A stretch of 64,000 nt of DNA, from assembly GCA_041390145.1 (NCBI GenBank), contig JAWKQM010000002.1:96235-160234 (forward strand). The letters run 5' to 3'. Position 1 is the first letter of the stretch. Each line of letters starts with the position of its first letter. The translations under genes and the position numbers were made by a program. This stretch comes from Gemmatimonadales bacterium. GTDB taxonomy: Bacteria; Gemmatimonadota; Gemmatimonadetes; Gemmatimonadales; GWC2-71-9. The notes under the pieces are model-generated. The model worked only from the letters and a program-made list of their open reading frames with translations, was not told the DNA's origin and made no database searches. Below are positions 14,347 to 64,000 of this stretch, one piece after another.

Positions 14347-14380
14347 GTCCGCCTACCGTCCCCCGGTAGGTTCCCGCGCT

Positions 14381-17793: not shown

Positions 17794-18497
17794 CCGAGGC
17801 CCATCGGCATTTTCACGACGACCTGAGCCAGGTCAAGATTCGCCTGCTGACCATGTCCGGGGAGGCTGAAGCCGCGCTCGGGCTGGCCGTGGACGCGCTG
17901 CTCGAGCGCGACACCGCCAAGGCGGAGGCCGTGGTGGCCAGCGACCGGGTTATCGACCAGATGGAGGTCGAGCTCGAGGAGATGTGCATCAACCTGCTGG
18001 CCCTGCAGCAGCCGATGGCGCGCGACCTCCGCATGCTGACCTCCGCGCTGAAGATCGCGAACGACCTCGAACGGGTCGGTGACCACGCGGTGAACATCGC
18101 GCAATCGGCGCTGCGCCTCGCGGACCAGCGGGCCATCGCGCCGGAACCGGAAATCGTCGAAATGGCCCGGCTCGCACGCGACATGCTCTCCGACGCGCTC
18201 GAGGCCTTCATCCGGGGCGACTCGCAAGCCGGGCGCGAGGTATGCCGCCGTGACGACAAGGTGGACGTGCTCCACCGGTCGGTGTTCCGGATCCTCCTCA
18301 CCCACATGATGGAGGACCCGCACACGATCGGCGCGGGAATGGAACTCTTCCTCGTCAGCCGCAACCTCGAGCGGGTGGCCGACCTCGCCACCAACATCGG
18401 CGAGGACGTGGTATTCCTGGTGGAGGGGAAGTCGATCAAGCATCACGCCGAAGACGTGGGTGACGCGGCCTGGCCCGCGGGGGCCCCGAAACGGTGA
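17790..18497 (+). CDS. phoU: Phosphate signalling complex protein PhoU
   Basis: Two PhoU repeats, each containing a [10 protein letters not shown] / [10 protein letters not shown]-type motif. 235 aa. It follows pstB. Confidence 0.9.
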
Positions 18498-45059: not shown

Positions 45060-45181
45060 GCGCCGCACCTGCTGGGAGGTGGAGGGCAACGGGTGGGCGC
45101 GGGGCCCGCGCGATTGACCCCGGAACCGTGGCGCCGAGGTCTCCACCCCGGTAAACTCCGGACAACTATGGAGAGCTGCTA

Positions 45182-46033: not shown

Positions 46034-46092
46034 CCGCGCTCATCATCGTCACGCTCCTCGCCTGCGCGGCGGCGCTGGTCTGGTCGTGGCGT

Positions 46093-48093: not shown

Positions 48094-48239
48094 TCCAACC
48101 ACCCCCCGCTGCAGTGTGACACAACTGTTGCCGGTCCGTGAAAGAGGGCCGACACGAGTCGTTGAGTATTCGGGCTGCATCCACGGCGGACGGGCCAGAC
48201 GGCCGGCCCGCCCCACACGCTCCCGAATCCCGGCCTGCA

Positions 48240-51011
48240 ATGTCGATACGTTCCCGTGTGTCCCGCCTGCTTCCCCTCGTGACCATCCTCATCCTCGTCC
48301 CGACGGTCGGGACCGCCCAGGAGACCGGCAGAGTGGTCGGCAGGATCCTCGACCAGGCGTTGGGCACGCCGATCGCCGGGGCCACCGTGGAGGTGGACAG
48401 CGCCCCCGTCCCGATCCGGACGACGTCGGCGATCGACGGGCACTATTCCCTCCGCAATGTGCCGGCCGGCCCCGTTACCATACGCGTCCGCCAGATCGGC
48501 TACGGCCCCAAGAACGTCAAGGGGCTGATCGTGCCAGCCGGCGCCACGGTGGAACAAGACATCTCCCTGAACGCCCAGGTGTTCACGCTCGATGAGCTGA
48601 CGGTGACGGCCACCGCTGAGAAGAGCACCGTAGCGGGCGCCCTTGATGCGCAACGCATGGCGCCGAATGTCACCAATTCGATCAGTGCGCAGCAAATCGA
48701 ACAGAGCCCTGACGCCGATGCAGGCGCCGCGATCAAGCGGGTCAGTGGCGCGTCGGTCCTGGACGGGAAGTACGTCTTTGTGCGGGGACTTGGCGAACGC
48801 TACACCACGACTTCGCTCAATGGCGCTCGGGTCCCGAGCCCCGAGCCGGATCGCAAGGTCGTCCCCATGGACATCTTCCCGACCAACCTGCTCTCGGGCA
48901 TCCAGACCTCCAAGACGTTCACCCCGGACCAGCCAGGCGACTTCAGCGGCGCGTCAGTCAACATCACCACCCGGGAATTTTCGGCCAACCACATCTTCAC
49001 GATGACCGTCGGTTCGGGATGGAACTCGGCAGCCACCGGCGTTGAGCTGGCCAGGGCGCCAACCGCGGGAGGCGAATGGATTGCCAATGGCGCGCCTCCC
49101 CGTGCCATTCCACAGAACGTGGCCGACGCCAACAACCTGAACGGGTTGACGCAAACCGAGGTAAACGGCCTCATTGGCTCGTTCCGCAATGTCTGGTCCC
49201 CCACCTACGAATCCGGCCTCCCCAACGCCACCTTCAACGCGTCCCTCGGCGGCGAAGACCCGGTGTTCGGGCAGCCGCTTGGCTATGTCGGCTCATTCAC
49301 GTACACCTATACGCAGGATATCCGGGACGGCGAAATCAAGAGCCTCGCCAAGAACGGGCCCGACAAGGACACGGCGGAGCCGCTCAACACCTTCACCGGA
49401 TCCACCAGTTTCGGGTCGGTGCTTTGGGGCGGCATGCTGAATCTCTACACCCGGCTGGGCAGTTCGGGGCGCATCACCTTCAACAACACCTACACGCGGA
49501 GCGCGGACAACGAAGCCAGCCTGCTGGGGGGCTTCAATGAGGAGTTCGCTGACACATTTCAGTTCTCCAACCTGACGTACATCCAGCGGTCCGTCCGATC
49601 CGACCAGCTCGCCGGGCAGCACCTGGTGGGCAACAACACGACGCTCGACTGGCAGATAACCAACGCGGCGGTCAGCCGTGACGCGCCCGACCGCTCCAGC
49701 ATCGGCTACCTGGCACACCCCAAGGGGAACGGGGTGTTCGAGCCGTACCAGTGGTTCGGACAGCCGCGCTTTGCCACCCGGACCTGGGACAACACGACGG
49801 AATCGGCGTGGGACCTGGGGCTGGACCTGGCGCGCAACTTCGGGAAGGGCGCCTCCACCGTCGTCGTGAAGATCGGCGGCGCCTATCGCACCGCCAATCG
49901 GGACGCGAACAGCCGGGCCTACGACATCAACAACATCAATCTGGCCGACAGCGCGCTGGCGCTGACACCCGAGCAGATCTTCACCCAGCAGAACATCGCC
50001 GACAGCAGCTTCCTCCTGGTGGCCAACGCCAATGGCGGCCGTTACACCGCTGACGACAAGATCCTGGCCGGCTATGCCATGGCCACGGTGCCGATCGGGG
50101 ACCGGTGGACCCTGCTCGGCGGTGTTCGGGTGGAAGACTGGAAGCTTCAGGTCGATACCCGCACGGCCGCGGGCAACGTGGTCCCGTCCAACCCTCAGGC
50201 GACGGACGTGCTCCCCTCGCTGGCCATCACCTACCGGCTCCCCCCTGACCAGGTGATCCGTCTGTCGGCCACGCAGACCCTGGCCCGCCCCGAGTACCGG
50301 GAACTGAGCCCCGTGCCGTACTTCGAGCAGGTCGGCTTCGCCACGACCTTTGGCAACCCATTGCTGACGCGAAGCTTGATCCAGAATTACGACCTGCGCT
50401 GGGAGTGGTACCCCTCTGGCGGCGAGGTCGTGAGTGTCGGCCTCTTCGCCAAGAACTTCACGGCGCCGATCGAGAAGGTGATCATCCAGGCCTCCGGCGC
50501 CAACTCCCTCAGCTTCGTCAATGCCGAGAGCGCGCAGAACTATGGCATCGAGCTCGAGGTCAGGAAGAACCTTGGGTTCGTCGGCGATGCCCTCGAGGGA
50601 ATCTCTGCGTTCGCCAACGCCACGTTCATGAAGAGTCAGATCGTCACCGGCAACGACAGCATCGCTTCCCTCACCAATCCCGACCGCCCGATGATCGGTC
50701 AGTCGCCTTATGTGGTCAACGCGGGGCTCACCTATCTGAGCCCCGGCGGGCGCACCACCGCCTCCCTGCTCTACAACATCGCGGGTGAGCGGATCCTCGA
50801 GGTCGGGAGCGGCGGCCTGCCGGACGCCTACGAACAGCCGCGAAGCATCCTCGACGCGTCGGTTGAAGTCGGCCTCTCCCGTGATGTCAGCGTGAAGGTC
50901 GACGCCCGCAACCTGTTGAACAGCGAATATCTCATGACGCAAGGGGGCGTGACCCGGCTTCGTTACACCACTGGCCGGATCTGGGTCGTGGCGTTCAAAT
51001 GGCGGCCCTGA
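48240..51011 (+). CDS. TonB-dependent receptor with N-terminal carboxypeptidase-regulatory-like domain (Oar-like)
   Basis: ATG 48240 gives the signal LLPLVTILILVPTVGTAQ. It has a CarbopepD_reg-like segment (GRVVGRILD...GATVEV...DGHYSLRNVPAGPVTIRV), a plug region (VSGASVLDGKYVFVRGLGERY) and a long barrel. Confidence 0.85.
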   Translation: MSIRSRVSRLLPLVTILILVPTVGTAQETGRVVGRILDQALGTPIAGATVEVDSAPVPIRTTSAIDGHYSLRNVPAGPVTIRVRQIGYGPKNVKGLIVPAGATVEQDISLNAQVFTLDELTVTATAEKSTVAGALDAQRMAPNVTNSISAQQIEQSPDADAGAAIKRVSGASVLDGKYVFVRGLGERYTTTSLNGARVPSPEPDRKVVPMDIFPTNLLSGIQTSKTFTPDQPGDFSGASVNITTREFSANHIFTMTVGSGWNSAATGVELARAPTAGGEWIANGAPPRAIPQNVADANNLNGLTQTEVNGLIGSFRNVWSPTYESGLPNATFNASLGGEDPVFGQPLGYVGSFTYTYTQDIRDGEIKSLAKNGPDKDTAEPLNTFTGSTSFGSVLWGGMLNLYTRLGSSGRITFNNTYTRSADNEASLLGGFNEEFADTFQFSNLTYIQRSVRSDQLAGQHLVGNNTTLDWQITNAAVSRDAPDRSSIGYLAHPKGNGVFEPYQWFGQPRFATRTWDNTTESAWDLGLDLARNFGKGASTVVVKIGGAYRTANRDANSRAYDINNINLADSALALTPEQIFTQQNIADSSFLLVANANGGRYTADDKILAGYAMATVPIGDRWTLLGGVRVEDWKLQVDTRTAAGNVVPSNPQATDVLPSLAITYRLPPDQVIRLSATQTLARPEYRELSPVPYFEQVGFATTFGNPLLTRSLIQNYDLRWEWYPSGGEVVSVGLFAKNFTAPIEKVIIQASGANSLSFVNAESAQNYGIELEVRKNLGFVGDALEGISAFANATFMKSQIVTGNDSIASLTNPDRPMIGQSPYVVNAGLTYLSPGGRTTASLLYNIAGERILEVGSGGLPDAYEQPRSILDASVEVGLSRDVSVKVDARNLLNSEYLMTQGGVTRLRYTTGRIWVVAFKWRP

Positions 51012-51131
51012 GTTCGAATTGACCTGATCGTGACGCGGTCGTCGCTTCGCCGCGACCATCCGCTGTTTTCCTTGAGGCGCGCGGGACGGCCCGCGGAAGT
51101 CTCCCCGACACGCAACGAACGAGAGGAACCG

Positions 51132-52838
51132 ATGATGGATCGACTGAAGGCGCTCTGGGTGGTACCCGCGATCGCACTGGCGCTCGCCGCCTGCTCGGAC
51201 AGCAACAACGACAACGGCGGGACCGGCCCGACGCCCGTGGCGGCCCCGACCAACCTGGCGGTGACCCAACTCTCGCTGACCTCCCTGCAGGTCAGCTGGA
51301 CGGCAGCTTCCGGGGCCACCTCCTACCTGCTGCAACGCGCGTCTGCCTCGAACCCGGGTGTCTTCACCCAGATCGGCGGAGGCGTCCTGGCCGCCACCAG
51401 CTTCAGCGATACCGGGCTCACCCCGACGGTCGCCTACAGCTATCGCGTCGCGTCCGTCACGGCCTCCGACACCAGCGGTTTCACCTCCGCGGTCACCGCG
51501 GCCACGGGTGTGTCGGCGGCCACGATCTCCGGGAACATCACCACCAACCGCACGCTCTACGCCGACACGCTGTATACGCTCAGCGGGTACGTGAAGGTGC
51601 AGAGCGGGGCCACGCTCACCATCGAGCCCGGCACCAAGATCGTAGGCGACACCGGCGTGCTCGGAAGTTCACTCTGGATCCTCCGCGGCGCCAAGATCGA
51701 CGCGCAGGGGACCGTGACGCAGCCGATCGTCTTCACCTCCGCCCGCGCCCCCGGCAACCGGAAGCCCGGCGACTGGGGCGGCCTCATCATCATCGGCAAC
51801 GGCATCATCAACCGGACCGGCTCCCCGATCCTGACCGAAGGTGGTTCCGCTGGCGTAGCCGAGGACTACTCGGGCGGCACGGACAACAACGACAACAGCG
51901 GCATCCTCAAGTACGTTCGCATCGAGTTCGCCGGGTACGACATCTCCAACGGCGCCGGCCAGGAGCTGAACACCCTGTCCAGCTACGCCGTCGGACGCGG
52001 CACCACCTACGAGTACCTCCAGTCGATGTCCGGCCTGGATGACTCCTTTGAGTTTTGGGGCGGCGCGGTGGACGGCCGATACCTCGTGTCATACGAGTCC
52101 GGCGACGACCACTTCGACTGGACCGAGGGGTACCAGGGCCGCATGCAGTTCATGCTCGCCCTCCAGACCCAGCGCCTCAACCCCGCCCCCGGCGCCGGCA
52201 CCTTCTCCGGTGACCCGCGCGGCTTCGAGGGCGACGGCTGCGACCCGGGTGTAAGCGGCTGCACCGTCACCGCGACCGGCACCAGCACCCCGTACTCCAA
52301 CCCGGTGTTCGCCAACTTCACCATGGTTGGCCCCGGCCAGCTCGCCGGCATCCCGAACGACGGCAACGGCGGCGTCTGGCGCCGAGGGACCGGCGGCTAC
52401 GTGGCAAACGGCGTCCTCTCCCGCTGGAAGGGCTATGGCATCAGCATCCGCGATGCCTGGACCGACACGCTGTTTACGCAGCTCGACTCACTCTCGTTCT
52501 ACTCGATCATCATGGCCCAGAACGGCCCTGGCGGGAACTTCGACACCACCGGCACGGCCTACGCCGCGCCGAGCAACTGGCCCATTGCCCAGTACAACAG
52601 CCTGAAGCTGTATTCCAGCTCCGTGTCGGTGGATACCCTCCTCGGCATCAGCACCAACCCGGCTGGACTCAACTGGGCGCCGAAGGCCGGTTCGCCGGCC
52701 GCATCCGGGGCGACGGCTGTCCCGGCCGCGAAGGTGAGCGGGTACTTTGGCGGCACCTGGCAGAACACCAGCTATCTCGGTGCCTGCGACGTTGTCTGCA
52801 CCTGGTACCAGGGCTGGACCGTCTACCAGATCAATTGA
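51132..52838 (+). CDS. Surface lipoprotein with Fn3-like domain and beta-helix-like C-terminal region; TonB-receptor partner by position
   Basis: ATG 51132 is preceded by GAGAGG. Lipobox ALALAACS. The Fn3-like segment is APTNLAVTQLSLTSLQVSWTAASGATSYLLQRA...YSYRVASV. It is followed by GATLTIEPGTKIVGD...GDWGGLIIIGNG...YVRIEFAG. Confidence 0.6.
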   Translation: MMDRLKALWVVPAIALALAACSDSNNDNGGTGPTPVAAPTNLAVTQLSLTSLQVSWTAASGATSYLLQRASASNPGVFTQIGGGVLAATSFSDTGLTPTVAYSYRVASVTASDTSGFTSAVTAATGVSAATISGNITTNRTLYADTLYTLSGYVKVQSGATLTIEPGTKIVGDTGVLGSSLWILRGAKIDAQGTVTQPIVFTSARAPGNRKPGDWGGLIIIGNGIINRTGSPILTEGGSAGVAEDYSGGTDNNDNSGILKYVRIEFAGYDISNGAGQELNTLSSYAVGRGTTYEYLQSMSGLDDSFEFWGGAVDGRYLVSYESGDDHFDWTEGYQGRMQFMLALQTQRLNPAPGAGTFSGDPRGFEGDGCDPGVSGCTVTATGTSTPYSNPVFANFTMVGPGQLAGIPNDGNGGVWRRGTGGYVANGVLSRWKGYGISIRDAWTDTLFTQLDSLSFYSIIMAQNGPGGNFDTTGTAYAAPSNWPIAQYNSLKLYSSSVSVDTLLGISTNPAGLNWAPKAGSPAASGATAVPAAKVSGYFGGTWQNTSYLGACDVVCTWYQGWTVYQIN

Positions 52839-52911
52839 CCACGTTTTCTGTGACACCGTGGGGTCGGCTCGCCATCGTGGCGGGTCGGCCCCCGGTCTTT
52901 GGAGAGACCTG

Positions 52912-53508
52912 ATGCGATTGTACTTCGTGGTGGCCGCCCTGGCCCTCGGTGCCGCCTGCGGACCGGAAGGTGGGCACTCCCCGCCGGCAAGTTCCAACGC
53001 GGCCACGGTCGTCGATTCCGCGATCCCAAGGGACGAGGCCCTGCGGAGGTTCCGGGTCGGCCTGGACACCGTCACGACGCTGACGGGAGGCGCTTCGAGC
53101 CGGGACGCGCTGGTGCGCGAATACGTGGAAGCGCTGGCGGCTGCAGACACCGCGGCGATCATCCGCCTGACCATGACGCGGGCGGAATTCGCCTGGCTCT
53201 ACTATCCCGAAAGTGCGCAGGGGCTCCCGCCCTATGACCTCAGCCCGTCGCTGATGTGGTTCATGATGGACGAGCAGTCGCGCAAGGGACTGACACGCGC
53301 GCTTGCGGAGCTCGGTGGGCAACCGTACCCCTACGCTGGGTATGTCTGCGAGGGAGCGGAGGTGGTGGAGGGACCGAATACCCTCTGGGGGCCGTGCCTG
53401 ATCCGGCGGGTGGTGGCACCCGGGGATACCGTCAACGAGCGGCTCTTTGGGCAGATCCTCGGTCGAGACGGCATGTACAAGATCACGACCCATGCCAACA
53501 AGTTCTGA
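52912..53508 (+). CDS. Hypothetical lipoprotein
   Basis: ATG 52912 is preceded by GGAGAG. Lipobox ALALGAAC. 198 aa. Confidence 0.55.
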   Translation: MRLYFVVAALALGAACGPEGGHSPPASSNAATVVDSAIPRDEALRRFRVGLDTVTTLTGGASSRDALVREYVEALAAADTAAIIRLTMTRAEFAWLYYPESAQGLPPYDLSPSLMWFMMDEQSRKGLTRALAELGGQPYPYAGYVCEGAEVVEGPNTLWGPCLIRRVVAPGDTVNERLFGQILGRDGMYKITTHANKF

Positions 53509-53514
53509 CGGCGG

Positions 53515-54948
53515 TCAGTACCCCGCCGCCGACGCCGGAAACCACGGAGTCACTACGACCGAACCCCTCGTCCGGGCAACGGCCTCCGCCTCGGTGGCCG
53601 TCGCCCAGTAGTTGCTGCCGGCCGTCAGCGACGGCGCCACGATGAAGTACCGCTGAGCGCGGAGGAAAACGTTGCCCGTGACCTGCGCGTCCCGCCCGAC
53701 GGAGTCGGCCACGAAGGCCTCATCCACCGCATCGAAGGTGTTCCCGCGCACTCGGGCGTGCGCTGTCCGCTCCAGGACCAGGCCACGCGTCACCTCGGCG
53801 ATGGTGTTCCCGTCGATCACATAGTCGCGGCTCGAGGGACCCGCCGAGTCCCGCGTGAACAACAGGATTCCCGTCTTGCCACCCATGATCAGGTTTGTCA
53901 GCAGCCGATTGGTCCCGCCGTGCTCGATGGCGATCCCGACCGAGCGCGACCCCAGGATAATGTTCCCCTGCACGGTCGTGCCGGTGGAATAGCCGAGCCA
54001 GAAACCGTAGTCCGAGCTGTCGGCACGGTTCTCGAGAAAGACGTTGCCATGGCTGAACGTGGACTCGAACGCGTTGTGGTAGGCGGACGATCCATCGTTC
54101 CGAAGCACCATGTTGCCGTTCGAAGGTCGGACGTACCCCGGCTGTCCGCTGAGGAAGAAACCGTCGCCCGACCAGGTGATGTCGTTGTCCGCCACCAGGT
54201 TGGAGTCGCTCTGTTCCCGGAGCAGGATGCCCGCGGAATCACACCCCCGCCGATAGGCCGGCGACTCGCAGCGCACGTTGTGATGCGCCTTGTTGCGCAC
54301 CACCACGTTTTGCGACGAGGCCCAGAGGTGCACGCCCCACCCGCTGTTCTCCGAGACGTCGTTGTCGGCCACGTAGCTGGCGCGCGCGTCGATCAACCCG
54401 ATGCCGTTCTGGGCATGGCGGGCGGAGTTCCCGACGATCGTCGCGCCGTTGGTGTTCTTCAGGAGAATGCCGCCACCATACGCCTCCGCAGAGTCCGCTC
54501 GGAAGATGTCGAGCCAATCGCGTTCGTCGTACCGGTCCGGCGTGGACCGGAGCGACTGGGCGCGGGACCCCGAGACGTCGACCCGGGCGATGCGATGGCC
54601 GCGTCCCCCTTCGATCCGGATGCCGTGCCGAAATCCCCGAATCGTCCCGCCATAGATCTCGACGTTGTCGAGCCCGCGGCTGACCACGCCGGCCCCGAGA
54701 AACGCCGCCTGCACGCTGTCGCCGCTCTCCAGGGTGACGCCGGTGAGATTCAGCCGGGTGCCGGAGCCGGCGATGATCAGCACGCCGAGCTCCCCGTGGT
54801 CCGCGATGCGGTAGCGGCCAGGACAGACCGTCACGTCTCCCTGCACCTGCGTACCGGCGCGCGCCAGGCGCAGGCAGGGCTCGCGTGTTGGGGGCTGGAT
54901 CAGGAGGACGAGCGCGGACGCACAGAGCAGGACGGGGCGGTTCAGCAT
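53515..54948 (-). CDS. Secreted right-handed parallel beta-helix repeat protein (NosD/pectate-lyase-fold-like)
   Basis: Signal-like N-terminus MLNRPVLLCASALVLLI. It has repetitive approx. 22-aa units with N..V..N / G+.+ patterns (NGATIVGNSARHAQNGIGL, SYVADNDVSENSGWGVHL, NVVVRNKAHHN, NLVADNDITWSGDGFFL, GNVFLENRADSSDYGFWL). Confidence 0.7.
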   Translation of the reverse strand: MLNRPVLLCASALVLLIQPPTREPCLRLARAGTQVQGDVTVCPGRYRIADHGELGVLIIAGSGTRLNLTGVTLESGDSVQAAFLGAGVVSRGLDNVEIYGGTIRGFRHGIRIEGGRGHRIARVDVSGSRAQSLRSTPDRYDERDWLDIFRADSAEAYGGGILLKNTNGATIVGNSARHAQNGIGLIDARASYVADNDVSENSGWGVHLWASSQNVVVRNKAHHNVRCESPAYRRGCDSAGILLREQSDSNLVADNDITWSGDGFFLSGQPGYVRPSNGNMVLRNDGSSAYHNAFESTFSHGNVFLENRADSSDYGFWLGYSTGTTVQGNIILGSRSVGIAIEHGGTNRLLTNLIMGGKTGILLFTRDSAGPSSRDYVIDGNTIAEVTRGLVLERTAHARVRGNTFDAVDEAFVADSVGRDAQVTGNVFLRAQRYFIVAPSLTAGSNYWATATEAEAVARTRGSVVVTPWFPASAAGY

Positions 54949-55409
54949 AGGCGGAGTAGATCCTCCAGGGGGCCGGCGCCACCATGCGCGAACAGGACAA
55001 GGATGTCATCGAGGGCACGGCGAGAGCGCGGCCACGAGAGACGGCTGCGGGCGAGGTCGACCGAGAGCCATTCCGCGGCGTCGTGCTCGTCGGAGATCGA
55101 GACCTCGGCGTCGGCGGGCACGAAGGCCACGAACGAGGGGATGAGGGCCACCGCATCGGTGCGGTGCAGGTAGAAGGATTCGACCCGGCTCAGGTTGTAC
55201 ATCGCGGACGGTGTGAGCCCGGTCTCTTCCTTCAGCTCGCGGCGCGCACCTTCCACCGGGGGCTCCCCATCCTCGAGATGGCCGTGGACGACTTCCCAGG
55301 CTCCCGGTGAGCGCCCGCGCTCGCTGCGCCGGAGCACCAGAAACTCGAAGCCCGCCCCGACAGGGCGGGCCACGTAGAGATCGATCATCGACACGCACAC
55401 GTCGGTCAT
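54942..55409 (-). CDS. Nudix hydrolase
   Basis: Nudix box GHLEDGEPPVEGARRELKEETGL. 155 aa. It overlaps the beta-helix gene start by 7 nt. Confidence 0.85.
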   Translation of the reverse strand: MTDVCVSMIDLYVARPVGAGFEFLVLRRSERGRSPGAWEVVHGHLEDGEPPVEGARRELKEETGLTPSAMYNLSRVESFYLHRTDAVALIPSFVAFVPADAEVSISDEHDAAEWLSVDLARSRLSWPRSRRALDDILVLFAHGGAGPLEDLLRLC

Positions 55410-55433
55410 CGTGGGGAACTTTCCGGCGTCAGG

Positions 55434-57686
55434 CTACCCGGCCCGCCGCCGACTGAGGACGGCGTCGAGCCTGGCCGAGAGCGCCCGCGCCCGGAAGGGC
55501 TTGGTGAGAAAATCATCTGCGCCCAGCTCGAACACGCGGACTTCGTTGTCCTCGTCGCCCTTCGCGGTCAGGACGATGACAGGAATGTCCTGCGTCGTGG
55601 GGCGGGAGCGGAGCTTGGCCAGCACTCCATACCCGTCGAGTCCGGGAAGATTGAGGTCGAGGACGATGATGTCGGGCGCCACCCGGTCGACCTGGTCGAG
55701 CGCCTGGACCCCGTCGCGCGCCTCGTGGACGAGGTACCCGTCCCGCTCCAGCAGGTCTTTCATCACCCGGCGCAACTGGTCCTCGTCATCGACCAGGAGC
55801 ACCGAGACGCCGCGGGACTGGTCGCCCACCGGCTCCTCCGCCGCCGGGGGAGCGTCCTCCAGCAGTTCAAATGCGGTGGTCAGGTCCACCGCGGGGGCGG
55901 CGGGGGCTTCCTGGCCCTGCGGAACTGCGGGGAAGACGCCAGTCGGGTAGAGCGAGGGAATGCCGAGCGCCGCCTGGCGGGCCCCGGCCGCGCCGTAGCG
56001 CCCCTCCATCGGGATATCGGTGACCCGCAAGAGCTCGTCGACCGAGCTGTCCCCCTCCAGCACGTGTCGAAGCCCGCTCTCGAAGAGCGACAGCATGCCA
56101 TTTTGACGCCCCGCCGTCGCAATCATGTCGACGGTAGCGCCCTGGCCGATGAGCCGTTCGATGTCGGGACTCATCGTGAGGATCTCAACGATGGAGAACC
56201 GGCCGCGATAGCCGGTCATGGCGCAGTCCGGGCACCCCTTCGGCTGGTACAGCGTCTTGGCGCCGGTGAAGTACTGCATCACCCGCTCGGGCACCGGTTC
56301 CTTCTGCACCACGCGACAGGAGAGGCAGAGGCGGCGCATCAGCCGCTGGGCGATCACGCCACGCAGCGCCGCGCCGATCTTGTAGGCCTGCATGCCCATG
56401 TCGACGAGGCGGGTGACGGAGTTGGGCGCGTCATTCGTGTGCAGCGTGGACAGCACCAAGTGGCCGGTGAGCGACGCCTGCACCGCGATCTGGGCCGTTT
56501 CGCCGTCCCGGATTTCGCCGACCAGCACCACGTCGGGGTCCTGCCGCAGGATCGAGCGCAGGGCGGTGGAGAAGGTGAGCCCCGCCTTCTCGTTGATCTG
56601 CACCTGCACGATATGCTTGCCCAGCCGGAATTCGACGGGATCCTCGATCGTGACGATGTTGACCCCTTCGCTCTGGATCATCCGCAGGGCGGAGTAGAGC
56701 GTGGTGGTCTTGCCCGACCCGGTCGGGCCGGTCACGAGAATGATGCCTTCCTTGTATCCCAGGAGGCGCTCGATCTGCTTCCGTTCCTCGAGGAAGAGCC
56801 CCAGCGTCTCCAGCGACAAGACCGTGGACTTCTGGTTGAGGATTCGGATCACGACCTTCTCGCCATACGTGGCGGGAAGGGTCGAGACGCGGAGATCCAC
56901 CTTGTCGTTGTTGATGGCGATGCGGGCCCGGCCGTCCTGCGGCCGGAGTCGGTCGGCGATGTCGAGGCCGGACATGATCTTGATGCGGGAAATCAGCGGC
57001 ACCCCGGCGGCGCGCGGCACCGTCATGACCTGCCGGAGCACACCGTCGATCCGGTACCGGACCGTGACACCACCCTCGACCGGCTCGACGTGGATGTCGC
57101 TGGCCCGGCTGGTGACGCCATCGGCAAGCATCATGTCGACCAGGCGGATAATCGGCTTCTGGCTCGCCTCGTCGGCGGAAGCACCGATATCCTCCTCGGC
57201 GTCCTCGATCTGCTGCACTTCGGCACCCGTCTCCAGCCCGCCCAGCAGCTTGGAAACGAGGTTCTCGCCCCGGTACAACTCCTCGAGCCGGTCCTTGATG
57301 CGCCCCGGCGAGGAGAGCAGCAGCCGGACTTCCCGCCCCGTCGCGAAGGCGAGCATCTTTTCGGCATCGATGTCGAAGGGATTGGCCGTGGCCGCGTCGA
57401 GGGACGAGTCGGTGATTCGCAGGGGAAGCACGTGGTGCTTCCGCGCGACGCTCTCCGGCACCACGTCGCGGACTTTCATGTCCATCGTCGTCAAGTCGGC
57501 CAGCGGGAACCGGAACCGCGCGGAAATCGCGGCGAGGATCTCGTCGTCGGTCATGATCCGGCGCTGGACGAGCTGCTCCCAGAGCGACGTGGGCGTCGCC
57601 TCGGCGGCCTCGCGGATGGCCGCCATGGCCTCCTCGGGCACCGTGATTTCCAGCGTGGGAACCAGCCACTCGTCCAGAAACGCCAT
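55434..57686 (-). CDS. Type II/IV secretion-family ATPase (PilB/GspE-like) fused to a C-terminal response-regulator receiver domain
   Basis: It has a GspE-N-like domain, Walker A GPTGSGKTTTLY, Walker B DPDVVLVGEIRD, His box GHLVLSTLHTN and the tetracysteine CLSCR...CPDC. A Pro/Ala-rich linker of about 70 aa follows. The receiver reads LLVDDEDQ...IIVLDLNLPGLDG...VIVLTAKG...FLTKPF, with all canonical residues present. Confidence 0.85.
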   Translation of the reverse strand: MAFLDEWLVPTLEITVPEEAMAAIREAAEATPTSLWEQLVQRRIMTDDEILAAISARFRFPLADLTTMDMKVRDVVPESVARKHHVLPLRITDSSLDAATANPFDIDAEKMLAFATGREVRLLLSSPGRIKDRLEELYRGENLVSKLLGGLETGAEVQQIEDAEEDIGASADEASQKPIIRLVDMMLADGVTSRASDIHVEPVEGGVTVRYRIDGVLRQVMTVPRAAGVPLISRIKIMSGLDIADRLRPQDGRARIAINNDKVDLRVSTLPATYGEKVVIRILNQKSTVLSLETLGLFLEERKQIERLLGYKEGIILVTGPTGSGKTTTLYSALRMIQSEGVNIVTIEDPVEFRLGKHIVQVQINEKAGLTFSTALRSILRQDPDVVLVGEIRDGETAQIAVQASLTGHLVLSTLHTNDAPNSVTRLVDMGMQAYKIGAALRGVIAQRLMRRLCLSCRVVQKEPVPERVMQYFTGAKTLYQPKGCPDCAMTGYRGRFSIVEILTMSPDIERLIGQGATVDMIATAGRQNGMLSLFESGLRHVLEGDSSVDELLRVTDIPMEGRYGAAGARQAALGIPSLYPTGVFPAVPQGQEAPAAPAVDLTTAFELLEDAPPAAEEPVGDQSRGVSVLLVDDEDQLRRVMKDLLERDGYLVHEARDGVQALDQVDRVAPDIIVLDLNLPGLDGYGVLAKLRSRPTTQDIPVIVLTAKGDEDNEVRVFELGADDFLTKPFRARALSARLDAVLSRRRAG

Positions 57687-57756
57687 TCAGCGGATTACCT
57701 CAACGAATTGGAACCCGAAATAAAGGCCGCCCGGGGGGCATTGGGTAGTGCCGCGG

Positions 57757-59799
57757 CTACAGGATGTTCCACCACTCCCGGGTAATGTCCAGCGTCACCT
57801 CGAACAATCCGTCCCGGAGCCCATACCCGCCCTCGAGACGCACGAGCCCCATGAACCACTCCGTAGCCAGCCCGGCGGTGCTGCGGAGGCCGTCGCTCGC
57901 CGCCCAGGGCGTGCCAGCGACCGCCCGTTCGCTCCATCCGGCCCCGATGAAGGGGGCGAGGATGAAGGTCCGGCCGGTGCTCGCAAACGATCCGAGCGGA
58001 ATGGCGGGGGCCGGCACATGGAACCGCCACTCGGCGTGCGCCAGCGCCAGGCTCCTCCCCCCGAAGGCCCGGAAGGGGTACCCGACCAGGCTGCCGCGCC
58101 CGCCCATGACGAAGCTCCGATACGCCGGCATGCCGTCGCCCCCAACCCCGCCGTACCCGAGCACACGGAGGACGCCCGTTCCCAGGGGCGCCTGCCAGCG
58201 GACCGCCGCCGCCGCCCGAAGGTACCCGGTCGGCCCTGTTCCCCCCTCGAACGACAACTCGCCGCTGAGGTCGTGAGGGGCCTCCATCCCCGCGGCTGCC
58301 CGGGTCAGGCGCAGGGTCGCCTGGGAGTAGCGGCCCGCTCCGAGCGGCGGGTTGGGGCGATAGGTCCCACGGGCGGGAGTCGCCGCCACCCCCATGTCGT
58401 GGCTCTCCTCCGCCCCGACCGACAGCGCCAGCGTGGTTCGATCGGCCACCGGCCGCAGGAGGCCGAGGCGGAGCCAGTCCACCAGGGCATAGTCGCCGTA
58501 GTCCTGCCCCGCCTCCTGGGAGGTGAGGGAGTTGACCACAGGGGCCGTGATCAGGAAGTCGCTCACGTCCTGCACGCGGCGCCCCGCGCCCAGGCTCAGC
58601 GTGTTCGTGCCCAGGCCGAGATCCACAACCAGCCGACCGAAGAGCCTGCCATCGCTGGTGCCATAGGCGGCATAGGGACGGAGGGCCACCCGGCGCTCCG
58701 CCGCCTGGAGCGTCAACCCAAATCCGAGGGTCAGTCCCTGCACCCGGTTGACATGGGCCAGTTCGCTGATCGAATTGGACGCGATTCGCGTCCCATGCAA
58801 TCCGCTGAGCGACCGGTCGCCCGCAAGGTCCTCCACCTGGCGCCGCAGCGCCAGCATGTCCTGGCGCGTCACCGGTTCGGCCACCCCGGCCAGCGCGTCA
58901 TCCAGCGACTCGCTCCACTCGGTCGCGTCCGGCTTGGGCTCCCGGAGCCCGCCGATCGCCGGTGCGGCGTAGAGGGCGCGCGGGAATTCCGCGTTCAGCT
59001 CGTAGTTGCCCACCTCCCACCGGCCCTGGATGATCCCGCGGGCGGGAAAATCGAGCCAGGTGGTGCGGCGCCGAATCTCGATCCTCTGGCGCTCGGGCAG
59101 CCAGTAGCGACCCTCGTAGAGGGCGTTCTCGAGGACGATGCTGATGTCCTCGAGCTGCGGATCGAGGTAGGAGACGGGCGTGAAGCTAAAACGGAACTGC
59201 ACCACCTCCGCCGTCTCGACGTCGAGGTACAGGGTCCCGATCACCAGCGGCTGGGTGAACGACTTGGGGCGCACGGCGACCTCGTACACCTGGACCGTGC
59301 GAGTGTTCGCGGAAAGTGCCAGCGAGTCCTGCAGGGCAAAGTCGTATGCCGCCAGCCCCTGGGGTGAGAGCGGATGATAGACGTCCCGGACCTCGTCCCC
59401 TTCGCCGATGCGAATCCGGTTACCGTAGTTGTTGGTGACGACGCCCAGATGATCCCGATGGTAGTTGATGTCGGTGGGAAGCCAGGTGCCGTCGCGCCAG
59501 CCGAGAATCGTCTGCTTGCTGATCCCCGGTACTCGCCAATACACTTCCAGCTTGAGTTCGTCCGCCTTGACGAGCCTGGGAGGCTCGGTGAGGCCGGAAC
59601 CGACCTGGGCCAGGAAGAGGACGAAGCCGTGCGCCTCGGACCGGTACGACTGCAGGGTGGTGTCAGCCTCGACCTGCTGCCGGCGCGCCACGCCGCGACC
59701 GACGAGGGCCAGGACCTCCGGCGTATTCCACTGCTGCGCCGCGAGTGGCGGAGCGAAGCTGAGCACGACGACGGAGAGAACCCAGAGGCGGAGGCGCAT
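57757..59799 (-). CDS. Uncharacterised outer-membrane barrel protein, paralogue B (Omp85-like C-terminal barrel)
   Basis: ATG 59799 gives the signal peptide MRLRLWVLSVVVLSFAPPLAAQQ. It has the barrel motif YRSFVMGGRGSLVGYPFRAFGG. It is collinear with the 31698-33854 product. The track ORF extends to 61956, but that part is antisense to two plus-strand genes. Confidence 0.65.
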   Translation of the reverse strand: MRLRLWVLSVVVLSFAPPLAAQQWNTPEVLALVGRGVARRQQVEADTTLQSYRSEAHGFVLFLAQVGSGLTEPPRLVKADELKLEVYWRVPGISKQTILGWRDGTWLPTDINYHRDHLGVVTNNYGNRIRIGEGDEVRDVYHPLSPQGLAAYDFALQDSLALSANTRTVQVYEVAVRPKSFTQPLVIGTLYLDVETAEVVQFRFSFTPVSYLDPQLEDISIVLENALYEGRYWLPERQRIEIRRRTTWLDFPARGIIQGRWEVGNYELNAEFPRALYAAPAIGGLREPKPDATEWSESLDDALAGVAEPVTRQDMLALRRQVEDLAGDRSLSGLHGTRIASNSISELAHVNRVQGLTLGFGLTLQAAERRVALRPYAAYGTSDGRLFGRLVVDLGLGTNTLSLGAGRRVQDVSDFLITAPVVNSLTSQEAGQDYGDYALVDWLRLGLLRPVADRTTLALSVGAEESHDMGVAATPARGTYRPNPPLGAGRYSQATLRLTRAAAGMEAPHDLSGELSFEGGTGPTGYLRAAAAVRWQAPLGTGVLRVLGYGGVGGDGMPAYRSFVMGGRGSLVGYPFRAFGGRSLALAHAEWRFHVPAPAIPLGSFASTGRTFILAPFIGAGWSERAVAGTPWAASDGLRSTAGLATEWFMGLVRLEGGYGLRDGLFEVTLDITREWWNIL

Positions 59800-59802
59800 C
59801 GA

Positions 59803-60423
59803 TTGAGAATATCCCGGGAACCGAGGGCTGGAGCAAGCGACGCCGTTGCGATCGCCCTGACACTCGCCCTGGCTTGTTCCATCGGCGGCTGCGGAGGCTC
59901 GACACCCGGGCTGGAGGGACCGGCACCGGGCCCGGTGCCGCGGGTCTATCCCGCCTCGCAGGTGTTTGCCGTCGAGGTCTGGGGGGCGCAGGCGCCGGAC
60001 ACGGTGGTCACATTCGCCGCCTCGAGCGGCCGGTCCATCGTCCTGCGACACGGCCCGCCCGATAACACCGTCTTCGCTGAAATGGACATACCTGAGGGTG
60101 CCTTCAGTCCGCGGGGCAGCGGCGACTCGGTTGCCGTTTCGATCCACCCGACGCCGGGCATCTACGGCCTCACGGTGGAGAGCGAGGCCGCCCTGACCTC
60201 GCCCATCGTGCTCACGTTCAAGTACCCCGTCCACTTCGCGGCCCCGTCGGACAGCCGCGCCCGCTATCCCACCGACGTGCTCTTCGAACAGGCGCTCGCC
60301 ATCGCCCTGGTGGAGGATGACGGCGCCCAGTTCCGGACGCTGCGGTCCACCCGCCCCGCCAGCGACAACCTGAGTGCGACGATCTCCATTCTTGGCCGCT
60401 ACCAGTTGGTCGCTCCGCGTTGA
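59803..60423 (+). CDS. Hypothetical lipoprotein
   Basis: TTG 59803 is the only canonical in-frame start that keeps the signal peptide (M)RISREPRAGASDAVAIALTLALACS, which contains the lipobox. 206 aa. It lies 30 nt upstream of the cyclase gene. Confidence 0.5.
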   Translation: MRISREPRAGASDAVAIALTLALACSIGGCGGSTPGLEGPAPGPVPRVYPASQVFAVEVWGAQAPDTVVTFAASSGRSIVLRHGPPDNTVFAEMDIPEGAFSPRGSGDSVAVSIHPTPGIYGLTVESEAALTSPIVLTFKYPVHFAAPSDSRARYPTDVLFEQALAIALVEDDGAQFRTLRSTRPASDNLSATISILGRYQLVAPR

Positions 60424-60453
60424 GGCGCCTGAGGCGCTAGATTTCGCCCCATC

Positions 60454-62070
60454 ATGCCACTCTTCTCCCTCATCAGCTTCGGCGGAGACCAGCGATTCGA
60501 GCTGCCGGCCGGCCGCACCTTGCTGGTCGGGCGGGCCGTCGAGTGCGACGTCCCGGTCTTCGATCCCACCGTGTCTCGCCACCACGCCGAACTCACCGCC
60601 GATGAGCTGGGTGAAGGGGTGCGCGTCCGCGACCTCGGCAGCTCCAACGGCACCTCGATCAACGGGGTGCGCGTCGCCGAAGGGTGGCTGGCTCCGAACG
60701 ACACCGTCGCCTTCGGGAAGATCTCCTATTATCTCCGGGCCCTCGAAGTCACGGCGGAACACCGGGTGCCCATGCCCGCGCCCCCCACCGGCCCCAAGGG
60801 TGGCAGCATCGTCCGGCAGCTGGTGGTCAACGTGGACACCCCGGCACGGGTCGATGCCGCCGCCGCGGACGGACTGCTTCGGGTCGGGTCGGGAGGGCCG
60901 GAGCGCCAGGCGGAGAAGCTCGCTCACCTGCTCGCCCTCTCGAACCGCCTCTCCGGCGAACTCGACCTCGACCGACTGCTGAACACGGTCGCCGAAACCA
61001 CCTTCCAGGTGCTCAACGTGGACCGGGTCGCCATCCTGCTGCGGGACGCCAAGAGCGGAGACCTCGTGCCCGCGGCGTCGCGCAGCCGGCTCGGCGGGGC
61101 GGAAGGCCTGCGCGTGCCGCAGTCGATCGCGCGGAAGGCGGTGGAGGAGCGGGTGGCACTGCAGACCGACAATGCCGCCGCGGACGAGCGCTTCACGGGA
61201 AAGTCGGTGGTGCAGCAGAGCGTACGCGGGGCAATGTGCGCCCCGCTGCTGGCCGAGGGAGACCAGGTGCTTGGCCTGCTCTACGTCGACAATCTCGCGA
61301 CGCCCGGGAGCTTCACCGAGGAGGACCTGCAGTTCCTGGTGGCCTTCGGTGGCATCGCGGCGGGTGGGATCCGCGCAGCCCGATCCGCCGACGCCGTACA
61401 ACGGGAGGCGGCCACGCGCGCCAATTTTGAGCGGTACTTCGCGCCGTCCGTCGCGGCGGACATTGCCGGACGACAGGGCGCCATCGAGCTCGGCGGGACC
61501 CGCCAGCCGCTCACCATCCTCTTCAGCGACATTCGCGGATTCACGGCGCTCGCCGAATCGATGCCGCCCGACGCGATCGCGGAACTCCTGAGCGCATACT
61601 TCACTGAAATGGTGGACGTGATCTTCGAGCACGGCGGCACGCTCGACAAGTTCATCGGTGATGCGATCATGGCCCAGTGGGGAGCACCGATCAGCCACCC
61701 GGACGACGCCGAGCGGGCGCTCCAGGCCGCATTGGGCATGGAGCGCGCGGTGGGCGACATCAACGCGCGGTGGGCCGCCCAGGGCCGACCGACCATCAGC
61801 ATCGGCATCGGCATCAATTATGGTGAGGTCTTCGCGGGCAACATCGGCAGCCACCGCCGCCTCGAATACACCGTCATCGGTGACGCGGTGAATGTCGCTT
61901 CGCGGCTCTGCTCGGCCGCCGCCCCCGGCGAGATCCTCATGACCGAGGCGTTTCACCGTCAGCTGGGCAAGAAGAAGCCCGCCGTGGAGCGGGCCGAAGG
62001 GATCGACATCAAGGGGCGGACCGGGAAGGTCACGGTGTACCGGATGAACGGACTGGGGAGCAAGGACTGA
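60454..62070 (+). CDS. FHA - GAF - class III adenylate cyclase
   Basis: The N-terminal FHA domain reads LLVGRAVECDVPVFDPTVSRHHAEL...DLGSSNGTSINGVRV. The central part is GAF-like. The cyclase core has LTILFSDIRGFTALAE, GGTLDKFIGDAIMAQWGAP and EYTVIGDAVNVASRL. Confidence 0.85.
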   Translation: MPLFSLISFGGDQRFELPAGRTLLVGRAVECDVPVFDPTVSRHHAELTADELGEGVRVRDLGSSNGTSINGVRVAEGWLAPNDTVAFGKISYYLRALEVTAEHRVPMPAPPTGPKGGSIVRQLVVNVDTPARVDAAAADGLLRVGSGGPERQAEKLAHLLALSNRLSGELDLDRLLNTVAETTFQVLNVDRVAILLRDAKSGDLVPAASRSRLGGAEGLRVPQSIARKAVEERVALQTDNAAADERFTGKSVVQQSVRGAMCAPLLAEGDQVLGLLYVDNLATPGSFTEEDLQFLVAFGGIAAGGIRAARSADAVQREAATRANFERYFAPSVAADIAGRQGAIELGGTRQPLTILFSDIRGFTALAESMPPDAIAELLSAYFTEMVDVIFEHGGTLDKFIGDAIMAQWGAPISHPDDAERALQAALGMERAVGDINARWAAQGRPTISIGIGINYGEVFAGNIGSHRRLEYTVIGDAVNVASRLCSAAAPGEILMTEAFHRQLGKKKPAVERAEGIDIKGRTGKVTVYRMNGLGSKD

Positions 62071-62085
62071 GGGCTCCCAGCGAGG

Positions 62086-62664
62086 TCAGCTCCCCGGCTT
62101 GCCCGGAAACGCGTAGGGCACCCCGGCTTCCGCCAGCAGATCGAGCACCAGCCTGATCGGCAGCCCCATCACCCCGAAGAAATCGCCGTCGATCCCTTCC
62201 ACCAGCGCCGCCCCGTACCCCTGAATGCCATAGGCCCCCGCCTTGTCCATCGGTTCACCGGTGCGGACATAGGCCCGGAGCATGCCCTCGCGCGCCGGTC
62301 GGAAGGTGACCGCCGTGACGTCCACCGCCTCGAAGACGGTCTCGGCAGCGCGCAGCGCCACCGCCGTAATGACATGGTGAGTCCGGCCCTGCAGGCGCAG
62401 CAGCATCCGCACCGCGTCATCCTCATCGAGCGGCTTTTCCAGCAGTTCATCATCGAGCACCACGATCGTGTCCGCGGCCAGGACCAGGTCCCCGGGCACG
62501 GCCGTCGCCTTGTCGTGGGCCAGGCGGAGGGCATAATCGCGTGGGCCCTCACCCGACTTGCGGACCTCGGGCACCTGGGAGGGGCGGACGTCGACCGGGA
62601 TACCGAGCATCTCGAGCAGCTGGCGGCGGCGCGGCGACGCCGAGGCAAGGATGAGGGACGTCAT
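62086..62664 (-). CDS. maf: Maf-family nucleoside triphosphate pyrophosphatase
   Basis: ATG 62664 gives [22 protein letters not shown], followed by [15 protein letters not shown] and [14 protein letters not shown] overlap with the dtd stop. Confidence 0.85.
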
Positions 62665-63104
62665 GCGGAGCGCTCGAGGATGAGGGTGACGGGACCGTCG
62701 TTCAGGAGTTCCACCTGCATGTCGGCGCCAAACTCTCCGGCCTCCACATGGAGGCCGGCGGCGCGCAGCCCGGCCAGGAACTTTTCGTAGAGCGGGATGG
62801 CGATCTCGGGACGCGCCGCGCCGATGAAGGACGGACGCCGTCCCCGCTCCGTGTCCCCGTACAGCGTGAACTGGCTCACGACGAGGACGCCCCCGTCCAC
62901 GTCGGACAGCGCGCGATTCATCTTCCCCTCGTTGTCGGTGAAGAGTCGCAGGCCAGCCACCTTGGCGGCCATCCAGTCGCACTGCTCTGGGGTGTCGGTG
63001 GCGTGAAAGCCGGCCAGCAGGAGGAAGCCACGGCCAATGGCGCCGGTCACCCGACCGCCGACCGTCACGCTGGCGCGGGAGACGCGCTGGAGGACGACAC
63101 GCAT
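62661..63104 (-). CDS. dtd: D-aminoacyl-tRNA deacylase
   Basis: ATG 63104 gives [13 protein letters not shown], followed by [19 protein letters not shown] and [10 protein letters not shown]. 147 aa. Confidence 0.9.
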
Positions 63105-63145
63105 GACGGAGTTTAACACCGGCGGCAGGGCCGGTGCAGCGGTCG

Positions 63146-64000
63146 CTATTCGACGGTGACCGACTTCGCGAGGTTGCGGGGCTGGTCCACGTTGCACCCG
63201 CGGCGCACGGCCACGTAATACGACAGCAGCTGGAGCGGGACGATCGTCAGGATCGGGGTCAGGAGGTCAAGCGTCTGCGGGATGGTGAAGGTCGCATCCG
63301 CCAGGCGCTCAATTTCGGGGTCGTTCTCCGAACAGATGGCGAGCACCTTGCCACCGCGCGCCTTCACCTCTTCGATGTTGGACACAATCTTGGAGTGCAC
63401 CGCATCCATTGGGGCAATGAACACGACCGGCATGTTCTCGTCGATCAGCGCGATCGGCCCGTGCTTCATTTCCGCGGCGGGATACCCCTCCGCATGGATG
63501 TAGGAGATTTCCTTCAGCTTGAGGGCGCCCTCGAGCGCGACGGGGAAATTGACCCCGCGGCCGAGATACAGGGCGTGGTTGCCCGAGAAGAACCGCTCGG
63601 CGAGGAGCTTCACCTCGGCTTCCTTGGCCAGGATCTGCTCGATCTGGGCCGGGAGCGCCTTCAGCGCCTGGATGAACTGCCGGCCCTGCAGGATGCTCAG
63701 GTTCCGGAGGCGGCCGAGGCGGAGGGTCAGCAGCGCCAACGCCGCCACCTGGCTGGTGAAGGCCTTGGTGGACGCCACGCCCACCTCGGGGCCGGCATGC
63801 AGGTAGGTGCCGCCGTCGACCTCGCGGGCGATGGTGCTGCCCACAACGTTGACCAGGCCGATCGTCCGCGCCCCGCGGCGCCGCGCCTCGCGAATCGCCG
63901 CCAGGGTGTCAGCCGTTTCCCCGGACTGACTGATCCCGATCACCAGCGTCTTTTCGTTGACGACCGGGTTCCGGTACCGGAATTCGGAGGCGTACTCGAC
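63146..64000 (-). CDS. glmS: Glutamine--fructose-6-phosphate aminotransferase, C-terminal (SIS) part; gene continues past window end
   Basis: It ends ...[16 protein letters not shown] and contains [13 protein letters not shown]. My manual translation of 63944-64000 continues in frame as [20 protein letters not shown], so the N-terminus lies outside the window. Confidence 0.92.

Follow-up and report, generated by a model that had tools for sequence, protein, structure and literature searches.

Do an outer-membrane barrel protein, a PilB/GspE-type ATPase, a Nudix hydrolase, and an exported beta-helix protein constitute one secretion machine when their genes follow each other on a single strand? 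This question is raised by a 64-kb stretch of DNA (hereafter, the window) from a Gemmatimonadales bacterium (GenBank assembly GCA_041390145.1, contig JAWKQM010000002.1, positions 96,235–160,234). The original prediction, made from the sequence of the window, regarded the four genes as a novel module, possibly a signalling-controlled export or surface-assembly device. Our analysis indicates that they are a lineage-specific leftover of a conserved chromosomal block, not a dedicated four-part secretion machine, and that the ATPase represents a variant of the PilB/GspE family, so far uncharacterised, in which a receiver is fused to the motor. As judged by comparison of sequences, this ATPase is most likely the motor of a type IV filament machine whose genes lie elsewhere.

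Open reading frame (ORF) calls placed all four genes on the minus strand at 57757–59799, 55434–57686, 54942–55409, and 53515–54948, exactly where the original prediction had put them; its spacings (gaps of 70 and 24 nt, then an overlap of 7 nt) were correct, and Pfam agreed with its domain assignments. The G+C content of the window was 68%. All four ORFs had the codon-position pattern of coding DNA, with G+C fractions of ~0.64–0.74, 0.42–0.51, and 0.83–0.89 at the first, second, and third positions, respectively.

The receiver-fused ATPase

The hexameric ATPase (55434–57686, minus strand, 750 aa) matched the Pfam families MshEN (6e-16), T2SSE (5e-132), and Response_reg (1e-31). It consisted of an N-terminal MshEN/GSPII domain (residues 60–141), a T2SSE core (173–554), a Pro/Ala-rich linker (557–625), and a receiver (629–740). 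The motor motifs—Walker A (GPTGSGKTT, 320), Asp box (EDPVE, 348), Walker B (VVLVGEIRD, 386), and His box (TGHLVLSTLH, 407)—were invariant in an alignment of 16 orthologues, as were the cysteines C454, C457, C485, and C488 of the tetracysteine zinc motif of the PilB/GspE subgroup (CLSC at 454, CPDC at 485). The receiver contained the acidic pair D633/D634, the phospho-acceptor D677, T707, and K729-P730; of these, D634, D677, T707, K729, and P730 were invariant in the same alignment.

The nearest solved structures were those of type IVa PilB from Geobacter (5TSG/5ZFR) and Myxococcus (3JC8), with E values of ~1e-114 over residues 8–556. The MshEN/GSPII domain, Walker A and B, Asp and His boxes, and tetracysteine zinc site are common to these proteins and the window ATPase, but the latter adds a linker of ~70 residues and a complete C-terminal receiver, and none of the 69 Gemmatimonadota loci places its gene beside pilC, pilD, or pilins. 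The core ATPase domain and the zinc motif are also shared with the type II secretion system (T2SS) ATPase GspE/EpsE (1P9R, 4PHT), and the NCBIfam score for GspE was close to that for PilB; however, similarity to solved GspE begins only at residue 164, and gsp genes are not nearby.

With the cyclic di-GMP (c-di-GMP)-dependent ATPases of the MshE/PilB2 type, the protein has in common the Pfam MshEN match at 60–141 but not the c-di-GMP motif: a regular-expression search of the ATPase for RLGxx(L/V/I)(L/V/I)xxG(L/V/I)(L/V/I)xxxxLxxxLxxQ (24 residues) gave no match, and the equivalent stretch, SLWEQLVQRRIMTDDEILAAISAR, lacks the Arg, both Gly, and the Gln. Control of the ATPase by c-di-GMP via its MshEN domain was rejected because the motif is absent.

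Receiver proteins acting in trans are known to bind PilB (bioRxiv 10.1101/2021.06.11.447907; PMC13507683). The likely logic, a phosphorylatable receiver governing a PilB-type motor, would be shared with PilG/PilH, the PATAN response regulators of Synechocystis, and DrdR of Xanthomonas, and the fused protein resembles a Rosetta-stone version of that interaction. It differs from these systems in that the receiver is covalently joined to the motor, a Che-like system is not nearby, and the candidate input is a GAF-PAS hybrid kinase. A literature search on receiver-fused PilB found nothing specific.

At least 120 clusters of ATPase homologues (identity 66–98%) were among the matches listed, and those with a named organism all belonged to Gemmatimonadales or Gemmatimonadetes. 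The order MshEN–T2SSE–receiver was common to all listed homologues except for one N-terminally truncated entry of 597 aa.

Receiver-fused relatives and the partner machine

Receiver fusion proved to be widespread: when an exhaustive profile-free search was made and the 150 best cluster representatives (clustering at 50% identity) were considered, at least 41 could be aligned without interruption from the N-terminus through the receiver. Four receiver-fused homologues (L086, L087, L088, and L089) were inspected. The gene of L087 (41% identical) is at the head of a complete cluster encoding PilD, T2SSF, three N_methyl pilins, a PilM-like protein, PilO, a secretin, and a PilT-like ATPase, together with a weak T2SSC-like match. 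In L086 (Zixibacteria) and L088 (a metagenome contig), genes for a zinc-ribbon protein and a pilin-like protein lie directly upstream of the ATPase gene, which in L086 is followed by a hybrid kinase and a single receiver; the ATPase of L089 is locally orphan. Because of the complete cluster of L087 and the pilin-like neighbours in L086 and L088, we consider the receiver-fused family a bona fide family of type IV filament ATPases. A scan for prepilin motifs revealed pseudopilin genes beside the ATPases of distant outgroups and none in any Gemmatimonadota locus or in the six reading frames of the window.

The conserved pair in L086 (7786–9386) and L088 (8382–9961) encodes a zinc-ribbon protein of ~198 aa and a type IV pilin-like protein of ~330 aa; the latter, in L086, combines N_methyl with a 3-keto-disaccharide-hydrolase-like domain. 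The nearest relatives outside Gemmatimonadota in the genome scan came from Acidobacteriota, a deltaproteobacterium, and Frankiaceae (L074:9890–11902, L075:9197–11095, and L077:3836–6136). Their ATPases end in a C-terminal double zinc ribbon (Pfam DZR), to which the Frankiaceae metagenome-assembled genome (MAG) adds a receiver. Their surroundings are not those of a pilus locus: DnaJ-domain, DUF362, MgtE-N/CBS, DUF1003, and Mrp genes adjoin them.

The receiver-fused ATPase might alternatively be mainly a signalling protein: not a motor but a nucleotide switch, dependent on phosphorylation, in control of envelope or exopolysaccharide functions. A precedent exists, since a role as a signalling intermediary in the regulation of exopolysaccharide has been proposed for Myxococcus PilB (PMC5544727). 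The position of the gene in a housekeeping block, where it is packed together with metabolic genes and has signalling genes nearby, fits such a role, as do the polysaccharide export genes that adjoin the receiver-fused homologue in L087. Against it, the catalytic motifs and zinc cysteines are strictly conserved, as expected of an active motor; the c-di-GMP motif of signalling MshEN domains is missing; and L087 itself places the family within a full machine. We regard this role as quite improbable.

Pfam was run on most of the ~50 genes called in the window; the others could be recognised as housekeeping genes (the remaining pst genes, DnaK, Tig, ClpP, ClpX, EngB, Maf, and GlmS). PilC/GspF, pilin, secretin, and PilMNOP genes were absent from this set, so the observation made in the original prediction, that no such genes accompany the ATPase, holds for the entire 64-kb window. 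The sole pilus- or T2SS-related gene besides the ATPase, located 55 kb from it, encodes the prepilin peptidase PilD (179–949, minus strand, 256 aa; Pfam A24_N_bact and Peptidase_A24). It starts at GTG 949, not at ATG 937, and its orthologues also have 256 aa. The presence of this gene shows that type IV prepilins are probably processed by the bacterium.

PilD is isolated, with a SpoU/TrmH methyltransferase gene on one side and a DUF8575 gene on the other. Two long Gemmatimonadales contigs (L084 and L085) have it in the context trmH-pilD-DUF8575-ffh-rpsP, near rimM-trmD, and no pil genes were found beside it there. The pilus-related genes of these genomes are therefore scattered. That the ATPase cannot be that of a conventional T2SS or type IV pilus does not follow, given that PilD is just as orphan and that the receiver-fused ATPase of L087 heads a complete pilus cluster. 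According to a survey of Gemmatimonadota, members from almost every environment possess genes for type IV pili (PMC10581226); the supplements of that paper and of PMC6668835 contain no per-genome tables of pilus genes for Gemmatimonadota.

Gene order across Gemmatimonadota

Three look-ups and one genome scan yielded 69 distinct Gemmatimonadota loci and a number of outgroups, which were annotated by gene calls based on codon-position GC, clustering, hidden Markov models (HMMs) for 17 neighbour families, and six-frame scans. The ATPase was locally orphan in all 69 loci: no PilC, pilin, PilMNOP/GspCLM, or secretin was found within 10 kb. The receiver was present in 65 loci, the exceptions being three genes cut by contig ends and L067.

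The genes that follow the ATPase on the same strand were far less constant. Nudix alone followed in 22 loci, and no same-strand string at all, with Nudix absent, in 13. The string hisC-hisB-hisH-nudix-hisA was found in 24 loci, with a terminal beta-helix gene in 16 of them and without it in 8. Nudix and beta-helix genes without his genes, as in the window, occurred in four other loci; hisH-nudix-beta-helix was seen only in L001 (ATPase 75% identical), and hisB-nudix only in L069. Directly after the ATPase, Nudix was found in 26 loci. The beta-helix gene was present in 21 of the 65 assessable loci, and in a neighbour-joining tree of the ATPases, all of these loci belonged to one crown clade, in which the his-containing state was dominant. 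For this reason, the adjacency of ATPase, Nudix, and beta-helix genes in the window is best read from the tree as a derived state that arose when the his genes were lost, L001 representing an intermediate stage.

Spacing in the his-containing loci was operon-like (hisB-hisH, −4; hisH-nudix, −13/−4; nudix-hisA, −7; hisA-beta-helix, −4 nt), and the median distance between the ATPase gene and hisC was 22 nt. The whole neighbourhood forms part of a block of ~25 kb, glmS-dtd-maf ... engB-clpX-clpP-tig, which is as conserved as the pair of barrel and ATPase genes. Unrelated neighbours keep together to the same degree: maf and the cyclase gene in 43 of 43 loci, and u200 and engB in 30 of 30. As unrelated housekeeping neighbours are equally conserved, little can be concluded about shared function from the fact that two genes of this block adjoin each other.

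These data bear directly on the idea that all four genes constitute a dedicated signalling-controlled export or surface-assembly device, with the beta-helix protein as cargo or surface part and the Nudix enzyme processing a nucleotide signal. The neighbourhood as such is conserved across the Gemmatimonadota loci, yet the ATPase, Nudix, and beta-helix genes follow each other uninterrupted in only four other loci; one more, L001, has the same tight order with hisH inserted. The short gaps on one strand in the window, the cyclase and kinase genes nearby, and an ORF in L067 in which ATPase and Nudix are fused are all in line with a device of this kind. It is contradicted by the absence of the beta-helix gene from about two thirds of the loci and of Nudix from 13, by the translationally coupled his genes interleaved in 24 loci, where Nudix and beta-helix genes belong to the his string, by receiver-fused ATPases of other phyla that have no Nudix, beta-helix, or DUF5686 neighbours, and by a DUF5686 paralogue in the window without an ATPase partner. 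We consider a four-part device very improbable.

The Nudix hydrolase and the histidine genes

The Nudix hydrolase (54942–55409, minus strand, 155 aa) matched Pfam NUDIX (4e-17, 62.9 bits) and contained an intact Nudix box GX5EX7REUXEEXGU at residues 43–65 (GHLEDGEPPVEGARRELKEETGL). None of the NCBIfam Nudix subfamilies (NudB, MutT, RppH, NudI, and others) reached its equivalog cutoff, the best being NudB with 40 vs. 103 bits. Neighbours in the PDB were MutT/MTH1, Ap4A hydrolases, and NudI.

In the 24 loci with the full his string (L003:12296–17288, L010, L012–L014, L016, and L019 among them), the Nudix gene is flanked by hisH and hisA, and the stop and start codons of these neighbours overlap. 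This repeated coupled position points to a probable co-expression of Nudix with histidine biosynthesis. In these loci, the gene is placed like a bona fide member of a bacterial histidine operon; in the window, by contrast, the his genes are gone and Nudix alone remains. No Nudix enzyme is known to belong to the canonical histidine pathway, where HisE is MazG-like. One may speculate that the enzyme substitutes for HisE (PR-ATP pyrophosphohydrolase) or for NudB, which would be chemically plausible and would fit a his or pabB neighbourhood; when embedded among his genes, it could catalyse the HisE or the phosphatase step as a non-orthologous enzyme. Nothing specific was found in the literature on Nudix genes in his operons.

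The fusion in L067 (9953–12088), from a Gemmatimonadaceae MAG, is an ORF of 711 aa in which the receiver is deleted and the ATPase frame runs without a stop into Nudix; no remnant of the receiver was found in the other frames. Either a genuine Rosetta-stone fusion or a misassembly could explain this ORF.

The beta-helix protein

The last gene of the string (53515–54948, minus strand) encodes a right-handed parallel beta-helix protein of 477 aa with a signal peptide, which matched Pfam Beta_helix (8e-37) and NosD (2e-31). It is a generic exported protein of the NosD-like/CASH type, restricted to one clade. NosD proper was rejected as its identity (TIGR04247, 78.4 bits vs. a cutoff of 300), the window genes annotated by Pfam included no nos gene, and a sequence search of the PDB gave no match.

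Between this gene and a hybrid kinase gene lies a plus-strand cassette (48258–53508) encoding a TonB-dependent receptor (CarboxypepD_reg, Plug, and barrel), a lipoprotein with fn3, and a lipoprotein of 196 aa. Orthologues of the fn3-bearing lipoprotein in L001 and L003 carry Pfam Beta_helix_4; no homology was detected between the beta-helix protein and this neighbouring Beta_helix_4 lipoprotein. Parts of the cassette recur at the same position in ~9 other loci, the TonB receptor itself in ~5, and the whole looks like an indel cassette for nutrient uptake.

The barrel protein

The outer-membrane protein (57757–59799, minus strand, 680 aa) possesses a signal peptide, an N-terminal beta domain resembling the LolA superfamily (residues ~50–270), and a C-terminal 16-strand barrel of the Omp85 type (~340–680). 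It belongs to the Pfam family DUF5686 (PF18939; 2e-13, 50.2 bits vs. a cutoff of 39.2), with a match that spans only profile positions 102–224 of 669; PF18939 was also found in 120 of 120 barrel homologues among the matches listed. The match to Pfam Omp85 (6e-4, 19.8 bits) was below the cutoff of 24.

A full-length AlphaFold2 model of moderate confidence (pLDDT 71.5) had BamA and TamA as its best Foldseek matches (E ~1e-9, probability 1.0, TMt 0.5–0.64). A model of residues 22–300 (pTM 0.73) matched DUF1329, LolA3 of P. gingivalis, LolA, and RseB/MucB, with E values of 5e-7 to 1e-4 and a high probability but low TM values of 0.3–0.44. Pfam found no POTRA in the protein, and its N-terminal domain models as a LolA-like fold instead. 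The protein, thus modelled, would have two domains, LolA-like and Omp85 barrel without POTRA, and shares with the Omp85 superfamily (BamA, TamA) the fold of the 16-strand C-terminal barrel, but differs from it in the LolA-like domain that replaces POTRA and in the sub-threshold Pfam Omp85 match. In Bacteroidota, DUF5686 members commonly have an N-terminal CarboxypepD_reg domain; Pfam did not find it in the barrel protein of the window. The predicted structure suggests a role in envelope biogenesis or lipoprotein handling, and DUF5686-type proteins of this architecture may represent an uncharacterised outer-membrane family handling lipoproteins or lipids. We found nothing specific on DUF5686 in the literature.

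The original prediction had labelled the protein paralogue B. Distant similarity was indeed detected to the product of 31698–33854 (pairwise E 4e-5; 82 bits with the family HMM), a DUF5686 paralogue without an ATPase neighbour, but none to that of 29136–31667. The latter is another Omp85-like gene, which adjoins the distant paralogue.

In 52 of 56 assessable loci throughout the phylum, the ATPase gene is immediately preceded on its own strand by the barrel gene, with a median gap of ~75 nt. Such constancy, the unusual combination of LolA-like and Omp85 domains, and the lack of any pilin or secretin within 10 kb in the Gemmatimonadota loci could mean that these two proteins alone are partners in a trans-envelope system. 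In it, the motor would act through an inner-membrane adaptor, as yet unknown, on the LolA-like/Omp85 device, and the latter would replace or bypass the secretin, or move lipoproteins or lipids without classical pilins. The adjacency does not discriminate, however, being matched by that of maf and cyclase or u200 and engB. Four loci (L003, L050, L055, and L063) keep the ATPase without the barrel gene; in the close relative L008, the upstream sequence is too short to judge. The two genes never overlap and are separated in the window by a weak terminator-like hairpin; elsewhere, receiver-fused homologues work with classical pilus parts, and DUF5686 genes do not adjoin them; an inner-membrane partner is not known, and nothing mechanistic ties the barrel protein to a cytoplasmic ATPase. 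A partnership limited to these two proteins appears unlikely.

A scan of 52700–60600 found no promoters and three terminator-like sites against 2.7 expected, an uninformative result; Rfam gave no match over 45000–64000.

Probable role of the ATPase

On balance, the region is probably a segment of a vertically inherited Gemmatimonadota block, and the ATPase a phosphorylation-gated type IV filament motor with partners encoded elsewhere. The constant core is the LolA-like/Omp85 outer-membrane protein followed on the same strand by the PilB-type ATPase with its receiver, and loss of the his genes in the lineage of the window would have brought ATPase, Nudix, and beta-helix genes together. The ATPase would serve as the assembly motor of a type IV filament (pilus or T2SS-like), and its partners, PilC and pilins among them, would have their genes at other places in the genome. 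Phosphorylation of the receiver at D677 might switch the ATPase cycle or docking to the platform and so achieve in cis what PilG/PilH, the PATAN response regulators, and DrdR do in trans. Nudix would be a small-molecule pyrophosphohydrolase tied to the his operon or to housekeeping metabolism, and the beta-helix protein would be an unrelated exported protein.

Several observations weigh against this interpretation. The ATPase scores below the NCBIfam equivalog cutoffs for both PilB (TIGR02538, 540.2 vs. 675.65 bits) and GspE (TIGR02533, 534.5 vs. 630.25 bits), and the nearest relatives outside Gemmatimonadota (L074, L075, and L077) are locally orphan as well. In the sequence covered (the window, the flanks of the loci, and the surroundings of PilD in two long contigs), PilC, pilins, and PilMNOPQ were located neither for this genome nor for any other Gemmatimonadales genome, and we infer the partner machine. 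Nor does the interpretation give a reason why a pilus-type ATPase should be packed so tightly with his genes. Nudix is still beside the ATPase in the 26 loci without his genes, which hints at a link between the two, and so does the ORF of L067, possibly an artefact of a single long-read MAG. The adjacency of barrel and ATPase genes could be functional rather than only syntenic.

Given the retention of Nudix in the 26 loci, the ORF of L067, and the near-universal pair of barrel and ATPase genes, we retain a small weight for a functional barrel–ATPase system, with or without Nudix. The broader form of this idea, in which the phylum-wide pair represents an undescribed trans-envelope system without classical pilins or secretin (for phosphorylation-controlled export or for lipoprotein or lipid handling) and Nudix is a possible accessory, seems slightly less likely again than the partnership of the two proteins discussed above.

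If the filament-motor interpretation is true, nature has here joined a two-component receiver in cis to a type IV filament motor, an arrangement found throughout one poorly studied phylum and recurring in others. It would be a convenient model for the phosphorylation gating of PilB-type ATPases, so far studied only via regulators acting in trans. The locus also carries a warning: co-directional adjacency in a single genome does not make a module, and here the loss of a his operon made an apparent unit of ATPase, Nudix, and beta-helix genes. The Nudix gene embedded in hisC-hisB-hisH-nudix-hisA and the modelling of DUF5686 as LolA-like plus Omp85 are by-products of interest.

Signalling genes and other features of the window

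The lipoprotein and FHA-GAF-cyclase genes that had been noticed upstream of the barrel gene are both real, and signalling genes are a regular feature of the neighbourhood. The lipoprotein gene ('lipo160', 59803–60423, plus strand; lipobox LALAC in the translation) is divergent from the barrel gene and adjoins it in 37 of 40 loci; Pfam assigned its product to no family. Its reading frame is open from 59806, with a probable start at TTG 59803. As this codon is only 3 nt from the barrel ATG at 59799, both promoters must lie inside the neighbouring coding sequence. In most relatives, the lipoprotein gene is the first of a lipoprotein-(pabB)-cyclase string.

The class III nucleotidyl cyclase (60454–62070, plus strand, 538 aa; Pfam FHA, GAF, and Guanylate_cyc) was encoded upstream in 43 of 45 loci. 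It contains the motifs FSDIRGFT, KFIGD, and GDAVNVASR and an intact set of catalytic residues, of which Lys 399 points to an adenylate cyclase.

Of the 43 loci whose flank extends for 8 kb or more, 30 have downstream a convergent orthologue of the hybrid histidine kinase (46093–48093, plus strand; GAF-PAS-HisKA-HATPase_c-REC by Pfam). The kinase gene comes right after the ATPase gene in the simplest arrangements (e.g., L028 and L040–L043) and is set apart from the string in the window by the cassette of TonB receptor and two lipoproteins. By position, this enzyme is the best candidate for the kinase of the ATPase receiver.

A compact phosphate-regulon cluster occupies 9124–20104 on the plus strand. 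Pfam identified an ArsR-type regulator, PhoB-like and PhoR-like two-component genes, a phosphate-selective porin (O/P family), an ABC ATPase, and a Ppx/GppA phosphatase; the genes between them were assigned by eye as pstS/C/A-like and phoU-like. In the relative L085, the ArsR and PhoB-like genes of this cluster are one fused ORF.

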